From the IMG/VR virus record IMGVR_UViG_2778261559_000019: 7,590 nt of DNA; one strand, written 5' to 3'. Shown here one piece after another: positions 72 to 719 of the stretch. The number at the start of each line of letters is the position of its first letter. Within the stretch, counting starts at the first letter, position 1. The DNA comes from a virus (taxonomy: Duplodnaviria; Heunggongvirae; Uroviricota; Caudoviricetes). The notes beneath the pieces are model-generated. The model saw only the letters and a list, made by a program, of their open reading frames with translations, was not told the DNA's origin and ran no database searches. The position numbers were made by a program, and so were the translations under genes.

Positions 72-290
72 TTAACGTGGGTATGTAATCATTCTGGCAA
101 TGCTTAATGCCGCTGCTTTTTCCAGATTGGTGATATCCTGCTCCAGAGCGGACAGATTTTCAGCCTGCTTAGCCCTGGCTTCATTGGCCCATTTCAGGTC
201 CTGCACCGCCTTAATTTTCTGGTGCATCCACTCATAAAGTTCATCATCGGTATAGTCTGGCGCGATGATGACGGGGTCTCGTTTCTGCAT
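72..290 (-). CDS. hypothetical small protein (72 aa), distal gene of the leftward operon downstream of the repressor gene
   Basis: ATG-initiated ORF with an AAGGAG Shine-Dalgarno (complement of 296-301) 5 nt upstream; charged, coiled-coil-like sequence; same strand as the repressor. Same length as Qin YdfC, but the sequence is not recognised. Confidence 0.55.
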   Translation of the reverse strand: MQKRDPVIIAPDYTDDELYEWMHQKIKAVQDLKWANEARAKQAENLSALEQDITNLEKAAALSIARMITYPR

Positions 291-362
291 GTCGGCTCCT
301 TGTGGTTAGCGTTGCCTGCTTTTTAACCACGTCAGGCGAGGTGGTATCCTCTGAGGGGTCTG

Positions 363-719
363 TTACTCGAGAGGAAATTGGTTATGAATACAATCAAGTT
401 TTCTTGCCCAGAATGTGGTGGCTAAGTCTTTGACACATCCTTTAAGCCGCAGGGCTCTGACAGTTTCGCGGGAGCCATCTGCAAAAATTGTGGTCACCTT
501 GTAACTGAAGATGAGTCCTCGCAGTTCGATGACGAAATCGTTGACAATATCTTCGGTGCACTCACCAGAGACTTTCTGAAGTAAAGGCGCATACCGCTTA
601 GTTACCGCTCTGATAACTCTTACCTGTCCGGCAATGGCGCTGATATCAATATAAAGCGCCATCGCTGTTTCTTTGCTGATCCCTGGACGCCTTCCATTCT
701 GATGTTTGACTTCGCCCAC
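363..719 (-). CDS. hypothetical protein (118 aa with GTG start; alternative ATG at 662 gives 99 aa), first gene of the leftward operon
   Basis: ORF on the repressor strand; GAGGA about 9 nt upstream of the GTG; preceded by a 207-bp intergenic region holding operator-like sites and a leftward promoter. No family recognised. Confidence 0.5.
   Translation of the reverse strand: MGEVKHQNGRRPGISKETAMALYIDISAIAGQVRVIRAVTKRYAPLLQKVSGECTEDIVNDFVIELRGLIFSYKVTTIFADGSRETVRALRLKGCVKDLATTFWARKLDCIHNQFPLE

Follow-up and report, generated by a model that had tools for sequence, protein, structure and literature searches.

Do the two small leftward genes that follow the immunity repressor in the virus record IMGVR_UViG_2778261559_000019 belong to a known operon, and are they themselves agents of cell-division inhibition or superinfection exclusion, the functions for which a preliminary description of this DNA had made them candidates? 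We analyzed the whole 7,590-nt (7.6-kb) stretch, hereafter the window; all coordinates refer to it, and leftward means the minus strand. The open reading frames (ORFs) of 118 amino acids (ORF1, with a GTG start) and 72 amino acids reported in that description are present on the same strand as the repressor. By orthology, the interval 72-719 is the head of a true dicBF-type operon and not a mere equivalent of its slot. As a whole it is best explained, and we hold this with good confidence, as the promoter-proximal end of the early-left operon of a lambdoid prophage related to Qin, one of the type that enterohaemorrhagic Escherichia coli carries at ompW. It is thus a variant of the Qin dicBF operon and not a new system. 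The new element is a module in which ORF1 encloses a zinc-ribbon ORF on the opposite strand, overlooked in the preliminary description. We tentatively propose, as something possible but short of probable, that both frames are translated: an antisense gene pair with codons in exact register, found in prophages of Escherichia, Citrobacter, Enterobacter and Klebsiella, with its two products expressed on opposite sides of the lysis-lysogeny switch.

The assignment to the operon begins with the repressor, which scores 241.6 bits against the NCBIfam model PRK09706 'transcriptional repressor DicA' (cut-off 101) and is 63% identical to K-12 DicA, both proteins having 135 residues. The gap between the repressor and ORF1 (720-926) is exactly 207 bp long and was aligned with the K-12 dicA-ydfA spacer. 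The leftward promoter and operator-like sites reported for this gap were recovered: a predicted promoter with a -35 hexamer TTGACC (828-823), identical to that of K-12 dicBp, 18 nt from a -10 hexamer TAAATT (804-799), and two exact copies of the sequence TTAGGNNNNTCTA (803-815 and 839-851). The window contains five exact copies of this sequence, all within its two regulatory gaps, the other three lying between the repressor and cro (1336-1348, 1361-1373 and 1387-1399); five copies were reached in none of 200 shuffles. The operator-like site that overlaps the promoter (OL1) takes the position of the K-12 TTAGTCATGGCTAA in dicBp. The operators share the design TTAG-N6-CTAA with those of K-12 and differ in the inner bases (TTAGG-N4-TCTAA here, TTAGY-N4-RCTAA in K-12), which suggests that the operator and immunity specificity of this prophage probably differs from that of K-12 Qin.

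Leftward transcription would start at about position 792. About 65 nt of the predicted leader are nearly identical to the K-12 leader, including the hairpin ACACCGCACGGTGT (773-786), and the last ∼40 nt also occur in phages with an otherwise different leader. Phages with other repressors have a near-invariant non-coding leader of ∼200 nt before ORF1 (L006 and L007, both at 4750-4943, with equivalents in L008 and L010; L numbers denote related loci), and the window carries the K-12-type leader in its place. All three leader types, K-12 ydfA included, share the sequence GTTCCGCTACCC(C)RGCGTTAAGGGGAA just before the ribosome-binding site (window 733-760). The ∼200-nt leader of the other phages contains a small upstream ORF, which was dismissed because its frame is not conserved between loci.

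The gene order was read from relatives. Among complete E. coli genomes, 555 match positions 1-930 of the window over at least 80% of the length. In the RefSeq context of an O157:H7 genome that is 99.9% identical to the window (L001), the leftward order is repressor, ORF1, ydfC, the 135-amino-acid ORF, a match to DicF, dicB, a DUF1482 gene of the ydfD type, exonuclease, excisionase and integrase, and the integrase adjoins an ompW fragment. The minus-strand ORF that had been noticed to start at position 49 and leave the window is annotated in L001 as the 135-amino-acid protein, and it matches phrog_1363 (function unknown) with an E value of 4.8e-47. Genes for dicB and ydfD (DUF1482) are annotated downstream in L001, L007, L013 and L014, beyond the left end of the window. 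The order in K-12 Qin is dicA-ydfA-ydfB-ydfC-dicF-dicB-ydfD. The window has no ydfA- or ydfB-like sequence, and ORF1 occupies the promoter-proximal place. Since the repressor, the promoter, the leader and ydfC are orthologous to those of Qin, we interpret the interval as a dicBF operon with ydfA and ydfB replaced.

The likeness to Qin therefore extends over the repressor family, the -35 hexamer, the design and place of the operators, the leader, ydfC, the dicB and ydfD genes and the DicF match of the relatives, and a Rem homologue beside hokD. Three features set the locus apart: ORF1 and the antisense zinc-ribbon ORF replace ydfA/ydfB, a 135-amino-acid gene stands between ydfC and dicF, and the prophage relatives keep exo, xis and int, being less decayed. 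Some points weigh against the assignment. The dicF, dicB and ydfD genes lie outside the window and their presence is deduced from relatives; the Rfam match to DicF in L001 (43.5 bits, E 1.6e-7) is below the gathering score of 48; and the promoter, operators and transcript of this prophage are predictions. On balance, the earlier placement at the position of a dicB operon was right and even understated, given the DicA-family repressor, the dicBp-like promoter and leader, ydfC, and, in relatives, dicB, ydfD and a match to DicF. The comparison with lambda rexAB was off by one promoter: rexAB lies between cI and oL, and the operon described here lies downstream of a pL-like promoter, in the place of N. 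An exclusion system of the RexAB type was also rejected directly, as the 75 bp between the repressor stop and the nearest operator hold no ORF and PADLOC gave no match.

Table 1. Features of the window relevant to the operon, its regulation and the antisense module.
Feature	Position	Strand	Description or basis
135-amino-acid ORF, first 16 codons, running off the window edge	1..49	-	WP_000394552.1 in L001; phrog_1363
ydfC	72..290	-	72 amino acids; identity to K-12 YdfC, RefSeq label, phrog_1744
Conserved block upstream of the zinc-ribbon ORF	314..350	+	Inverted repeat and extended -10-like element; eight lineages
ORF1	363..719	-	118 amino acids from GTG 719, or 99 from ATG 662; phrog_21318
Zinc-ribbon pseudogene, ECs_2282 family	384..584	+	NF047912; TAA at 423-425
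5' leader common to K-12 ydfA (predicted)	720..792	-	Hairpin ACACCGCACGGTGT (773-786) and element GTTCCGCTACCCGGCGTTAAGGGGAA
Predicted leftward sigma-70-type promoter, orthologue of Qin dicBp	799..828	-	Consensus scan and alignment with the K-12 dicA-ydfA spacer
Operator-like site OL1, TTAGGCTATTCTAA	802..815	-	Overlaps the spacer and the -10 hexamer
Operator-like site OL2, TTAGGTTTTTCTA	839..851	-	Just upstream of the -35 hexamer
DicA-family immunity repressor, 135 amino acids	927..1334	-	Pfam HTH_3; NCBIfam PRK09706; comparison with K-12 DicA
Three operator-like sites in the repressor-cro gap	1336..1399	+	Exact matches to TTAGGNNNNTCTA
Rem-type antirepressor homologue, 86 amino acids	6734..6994	+	73% identity to K-12 Rem, E 2e-40

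The ORF on the opposite strand lies wholly inside the 118-amino-acid frame of ORF1. It encodes 66 amino acids with two CxxC motifs, and its sequence is MNTIKFSCPECGG-E-VFDTSFKPQGSDSFAGAICKNCGH... In the window its codon 14 is TAA in place of Glu14, through the change G423T, which in ORF1 corresponds to F99L at a nearly invariant phenylalanine. The intact allele scores 57.3 bits against the NCBIfam model NF047912 (ECs_2282 family putative zinc-binding protein; cut-off 37), and distant phage relatives of the protein are found in phrog_4852 (E 1e-9). Short allele-specific queries against 5,426 E. coli genomes detected the TAA allele in 516, including enterohaemorrhagic ones (O157:H7 and O103, for example), and the GAA allele in 840; one O157 strain has both, in different prophages. 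The RefSeq annotation (PGAP) follows the allele: a plus-strand 'ECs_2282 family' gene is called where the codon is GAA, and a minus-strand 'hypothetical protein' of 99 amino acids where it is TAA (L001, L013 and L014).

Exactly 66 codons and both CxxC pairs (CPEC and CKNC, which are invariant) are retained in nine lineages, down to 45-52% identity. A Shine-Dalgarno sequence is found 8-11 nt before the zinc-ribbon ATG in every lineage (GAGG at 371-374 in the window). The block farther upstream, 33-70 nt before the ATG, consists of the inverted repeat GCCTG (314-318) / CAGGC (333-337) followed by TGgTATCCT (342-350; TGgTATCYT across loci). It is conserved down to the same 45-52% protein identity, and in the most distant locus, L103, the inverted repeat is altered on both arms, to GCCGGG/CCCGGC. 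We infer that this block is a promoter for the zinc-ribbon gene. The two frames occur together at every one of the 13 loci examined, which represent nine distinct lineages, and the zinc-ribbon ORF always runs against the early operon and ORF1 with it, in pL-side as well as pR-side contexts. A scan of one genome per species for relatives of the zinc-ribbon protein returned two zinc-knuckle look-alikes alone (Bacteroidota and Rhizobium), and a literature search for ECs2282 recovered nothing relevant.

The two frames share triplet boundaries, so that the first position of each codon faces the third position of the codon opposite. The zinc-ribbon frame, which is conserved in prophages across the Enterobacteriaceae, is clearly under strong purifying selection. 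Within the E. coli clade its ratio of non-synonymous to synonymous substitution rates (dN/dS) is 0-0.15, and in comparisons between clades it rises to 0.16-0.29. The variable columns number 34, 15 and 46 at codon positions 1, 2 and 3, and of the 43 polymorphisms among 30 haplotypes 24 are synonymous, a class expected to make up 21%.

These figures raise the possibility that ORF1 is not a gene but an open shadow frame of the zinc-ribbon gene, leaving ydfC as the sole real leftward gene of the interval. Several observations speak for such a reading and against the translation of ORF1. Within the overlap, the dN/dS of the ORF1 frame is 0.85-1.9 in the E. coli clade, and its polymorphisms (10 synonymous to 33 non-synonymous) stand at the neutral ratio, as a non-coding shadow frame would show. 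Close-range differences in the overlap tend to leave the zinc-ribbon protein unchanged but to alter that of ORF1: between the window and L008, the zinc-ribbon frame has 15 synonymous and 6 non-synonymous differences, the ORF1 frame 3 and 19. The zinc-ribbon frame is always the better conserved, with 52% versus 38% identity at the greatest distance. The ORF1 codons lie directly opposite the zinc-ribbon codons, an antisense register tending to the fewest stops. PGAP calls ORF1 solely in sequences with an interrupted zinc-ribbon ORF; gene callers would thus choose ORF1 here only because a stop interrupts the zinc-ribbon gene in this allele. To this may be added the start of ORF1. Its Shine-Dalgarno sequence at ATG 662 is weak, and the 19-codon extension to GTG 719 appears neutral, with 4 synonymous to 14 non-synonymous changes.

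The comparison within the overlap is, however, biased against ORF1, because changes synonymous in ORF1 are first-position changes in the zinc-ribbon frame, where selection purges them. Tests conditioned on the zinc-ribbon frame suggest that ORF1 is coding as well. Given the zinc-ribbon protein and the local codon usage, the ORF1 frame would be open by chance with a frequency of 5-28% in each lineage, yet it is open in all nine. Of 22 zinc-ribbon-synonymous changes that would create a stop in ORF1 none was seen, compared with 57 of the 263 others (p = 0.01). Those zinc-ribbon-synonymous changes that are observed have milder effects in the ORF1 frame than those that are not, a bias toward conservative changes with a permutation p of ∼0.0005 when transitions and codon usage are controlled for. 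Outside the overlap, the 25 codons 21-45 of ORF1 (585-659) are open in the nine lineages, and each of the other five frames is stopped in some of them. The dN/dS of this stretch between clades is 0.13-0.5, its variation is richest at third codon positions, and one distant member has gained an extra residue there, a length difference that is in frame. Nonsense alleles have arisen twice independently in the zinc-ribbon ORF, at E14 and at E44 (TAG in L100, a change that is synonymous in ORF1), whereas the 30 haplotypes show none in ORF1. The Klebsiella and Citrobacter members have a strong Shine-Dalgarno sequence and an ATG at the aligned ORF1 start, and AlphaFold2 gives ORF1 a mean predicted local distance difference test score (pLDDT) of 81. 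The conditioned tests reuse related sequences and are not phylogeny-aware. For this reason we grade the two frames differently: the zinc-ribbon ORF is almost certainly a real gene in relatives of this prophage, and ORF1 is probably translated. That ORF1 is a non-coding shadow appears rather unlikely.

Taking ORF1 as a coding sequence, we examined its extent, family and predicted fold. The preliminary description gave the protein 118 amino acids, and this length is doubtful. The conserved core begins at Met20 (ATG 662) and comprises 99 amino acids; the RefSeq protein, the PHROG profile and the distant homologues all begin there. Residues 1-19 vary, and they are absent from the family members in Klebsiella and Citrobacter. 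The evidence on the start codon is nevertheless mixed: GTG 719 has the better Shine-Dalgarno sequence, is placed like the ydfA start relative to the common leader, and is an ATG in one variant. At the ATG 662 start, ∼50 nt past the zinc-ribbon stop, the window has a hairpin GGCGCT-N13-AGCGCC (635-659). Its stem is kept in all lineages; in L017 it extends to 9 bp and in L103 to 8 bp, with different bases added in each. The hairpin could affect the translation of ORF1 or terminate the plus-strand transcript.

ORF1 matches phrog_21318 (function unknown) with an E value of 8.6e-67, in a profile that begins at residue 20. The family is tiny: 23 proteins matched in an index of 5.8 billion, and a profile search of 1.84 billion representatives returned only 10, every one from this family. 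There was no match in Pfam, NCBIfam or PADLOC and none in a sequence-profile search of the PDB. The AlphaFold2 model has an alpha-alpha-beta-beta-alpha arrangement with a predicted template modelling score of 0.66, and fold searches of solved and viral structures gave no meaningful relatives. The preliminary description had recognised neither of the two proteins. For ORF1 this holds, as remote homology and structure prediction yielded only phrog_21318 and a predicted fold, without relatives by sequence or structure outside the tiny family. The 72-amino-acid protein, in contrast, is YdfC.

ORF1 DNA is present in 937 genomes and accompanies several different repressors. In Klebsiella prophages it is found across the switch, immediately following cro. 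In three loci a pair of genes for a PaaA2-type antitoxin and a ParE-type toxin is found between the repressor and ORF1 (L010 2031-2509, L011 732-1210, L014 4123-4602). Other identities for ORF1 were considered and rejected. It has the position of an N-type antiterminator, but it is predicted to be folded, its core has no arginine-rich motif, and its N-terminal extension is variable; moreover, the leader before ORF1 is the leader that precedes ydfA in K-12. A CII-like regulator, conceivable from its place after cro in Klebsiella, is contradicted by the absence of a helix-turn-helix or of CII similarity, and a CII/YdaT-like gene is already present elsewhere in the window, at 1622-2173. A type II toxin-antitoxin system was discarded for lack of a match in Pfam, NCBIfam or PADLOC and because deleting dicF and dicB leaves a K-12 operon that shows no toxicity. 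Nor do ORF1 and YdfC form an obligate pair: Klebsiella has ORF1 without ydfC, and K-12 has ydfC without ORF1.

The position and orientation of the zinc-ribbon ORF resemble those of sieB in lambda and Rac, an exclusion gene that is expressed in the lysogen: the ORF lies in the early-left region beside the immunity genes, in anti-pL orientation, behind a promoter-like block of its own. Its product differs from SieB, a membrane protein, in being a soluble-looking protein of 66 amino acids with an acidic tail, and the ORF differs from sieB in fully overlapping a leftward ORF. Searches of Pfam and PADLOC found no similarity between the zinc-ribbon protein and SieB. The small CxxC...CxxC proteins of the Lar/Ral type (TIGR03655, phrog_6422) are likewise encoded in the early-left region of lambdoid prophages. 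Membership in that family was rejected, with scores far below the cut-off (15.7 bits for TIGR03655, cut-off 39.6; E 0.0098 for phrog_6422) and a likeness confined to the zinc knuckles. In addition, Lar is transcribed with the operon and the zinc-ribbon ORF against it. Antisense overlapping genes have been described experimentally in E. coli O157:H7, for example nog1/citC. The present case is similar in that an ORF is embedded antisense in another in an enterohaemorrhagic genome; it differs in that both frames are conserved across at least four genera, in exact triplet register and at a phage switch, and in being known from sequence alone.

The resemblance to sieB invites a further interpretation, in which ORF1 and the zinc-ribbon ORF would form an antagonistic two-state pair like SieB and Esc of phage P22. 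The zinc-ribbon protein, made in the lysogen, would act against a phage entering the cell or else on the switch; its neutralisation would fall to ORF1, expressed from the early promoter; and convergent transcription would stop zinc-ribbon synthesis during the phage's own lytic growth. The inseparability of the frames, their fixed orientations relative to early transcription on the pL and pR sides, and the conserved promoter-like block with its palindrome fit such an arrangement. In an Enterobacter prophage (L017), a SieB-family gene (3323-3823) lies directly upstream of the zinc-ribbon ORF (4100-4300) on the same strand, both against the early-left operon, and lambda sieB has the same anti-pL orientation. 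The proposal is purely inferential, though, and a highly successful lineage of prophages does without the zinc-ribbon gene, judging by the stop allele of the 516 genomes. Together with the lack of homology to SieB, Esc or any defence family, this leads us to regard an antagonistic pair of this type as improbable.

The second leftward protein is 94% identical to K-12 YdfC over 72 of 72 residues and is labelled 'protein YdfC' in RefSeq; it matches phrog_1744 with an E value of 9.1e-39. Its gene has a Shine-Dalgarno sequence AAGGAG, 5 nt upstream, and ydfC-like DNA is found in 3,076 of the 5,426 genomes. The AlphaFold2 model, built with 17 homologues, has a low-confidence and apparently disordered N-terminal tail (residues 1-14) followed by a single helix (15-69), with a mean pLDDT of 87. 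The best-conserved segment is the acidic-aromatic tail, MQKREPVIIAPDYTDDE. In the C-terminal half, hydrophobic residues recur every 3-4 positions in the sequence, which fits a coiled coil. A Foldseek search of the PDB gave no match, as expected of a single helix, and a profile search of the PDB gave coiled-coil noise alone. Among the 30 haplotypes ydfC shows 12 synonymous and 20 non-synonymous polymorphisms and 1 stop, which indicates only mild constraint (p = 0.036). YdfC is a real but weakly constrained small protein.

The K-12 literature bears directly on what these genes do. The ydfA, ydfB and ydfC products have been called small proteins of unknown function, and induction of ydfABC-ydfD without dicF and dicB left growth, viability and morphology normal, with no filamentation; toxicity mapped to dicF and dicB (PMC5069750). 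Lambda resistance maps to dicB (PMC6832061). On these published operon genetics, YdfC is not a division inhibitor, nor a lambda-exclusion factor under the conditions used. No native function is reported in the papers listed as mentioning ydfC, and the one paper rich in mentions concerns an evolved YdfC-GFP fusion in yeast. Our best guess, weakly held, is that YdfC acts as a non-toxic adaptor, binding through the conserved N-terminal peptide.

The suggestion that ORF1, YdfC or both are themselves division-inhibition or superinfection-exclusion functions is therefore not supported. Both genes do lie in an operon dedicated to host takeover, and K-12 genetics is silent on ORF1, which has no K-12 counterpart. 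A filamentation screen did show enrichment of the entire exoO-dicC region (PMC6206680), yet dicB and dicF are part of it. The normal growth and morphology of cells expressing the K-12 operon without dicF and dicB (PMC5069750) point the other way, as does the absence from both proteins of a PADLOC defence-family match and, in the predicted models, of a membrane segment or known exclusion fold. An effector role for either protein is, in our estimate, highly improbable. The dicBF operon itself and YdfC, annotated in thousands of E. coli genomes, are already known, and the activities in question are assigned to DicF and DicB.

Regulation can be projected from K-12, where DicA represses dicBp 22-fold, Rem derepresses it 165-fold, and the transcript is polycistronic, running from upstream of ydfA through dicF and dicB (PMC10448788). 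By orthology, the repressor of the window would keep the dicBp-like promoter off in the lysogen, and the Rem-type antirepressor is the likely inducer of the leftward operon. As in Qin, the Rem homologue is encoded just after hokD/sok; the region 6214-6516 (plus strand) holds the hokD toxin ORF (6304-6516) and a match to the sok antisense RNA (Rfam RF01794, 103.9 bits). A single polycistronic transcript would then encode ORF1, YdfC and the 135-amino-acid protein together with the effectors, and division inhibition and receptor blocking would be exerted by DicF, an ftsZ antisense RNA, and DicB, a MinC activator and receptor blocker. An intact zinc-ribbon gene, with its own promoter-like block and its orientation against the operon, would be expressed while the prophage is repressed, and ORF1 would have to await derepression. 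We propose that convergent transcription makes the two overlapping products mutually exclusive. With the stop at codon 14, only the leftward member could be made from the window.

The dicBF operon of many pathogenic E. coli is a variant that has, in place of ydfA and ydfB, a module with reading frames on both strands. Because the reference annotation switches strand with a single base, the reported gene content of such prophages is inconsistent. If both frames are translated, the module would be a rare case of an antisense gene pair that evolution has preserved at the genetic switch of a phage. The TAA allele is a natural knockout of one member, which makes the question of an antisense pair directly testable.

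A few further features were observed in the window and its relatives. In phage Evi (L006), a gene annotated as Kil occupies the place of dicB (6797-7018), so the division-inhibitor slot seems interchangeable. Between dicF and dicB, L001 has a sub-threshold Rfam match to STnc100 (6853-7058, minus strand; 32.5 bits, gathering score 47). The same genome has an IS1203 insertion in the replication gene region (10947-12159) that is missing from the window. At 5267-6025 (plus strand) the window encodes a 252-amino-acid protein annotated in a relative as the AcfC-family adhesin Paa, preceded at 4537-5106 by a fimbrial gene that is frameshifted according to RefSeq; the two look like virulence cargo inside the prophage.

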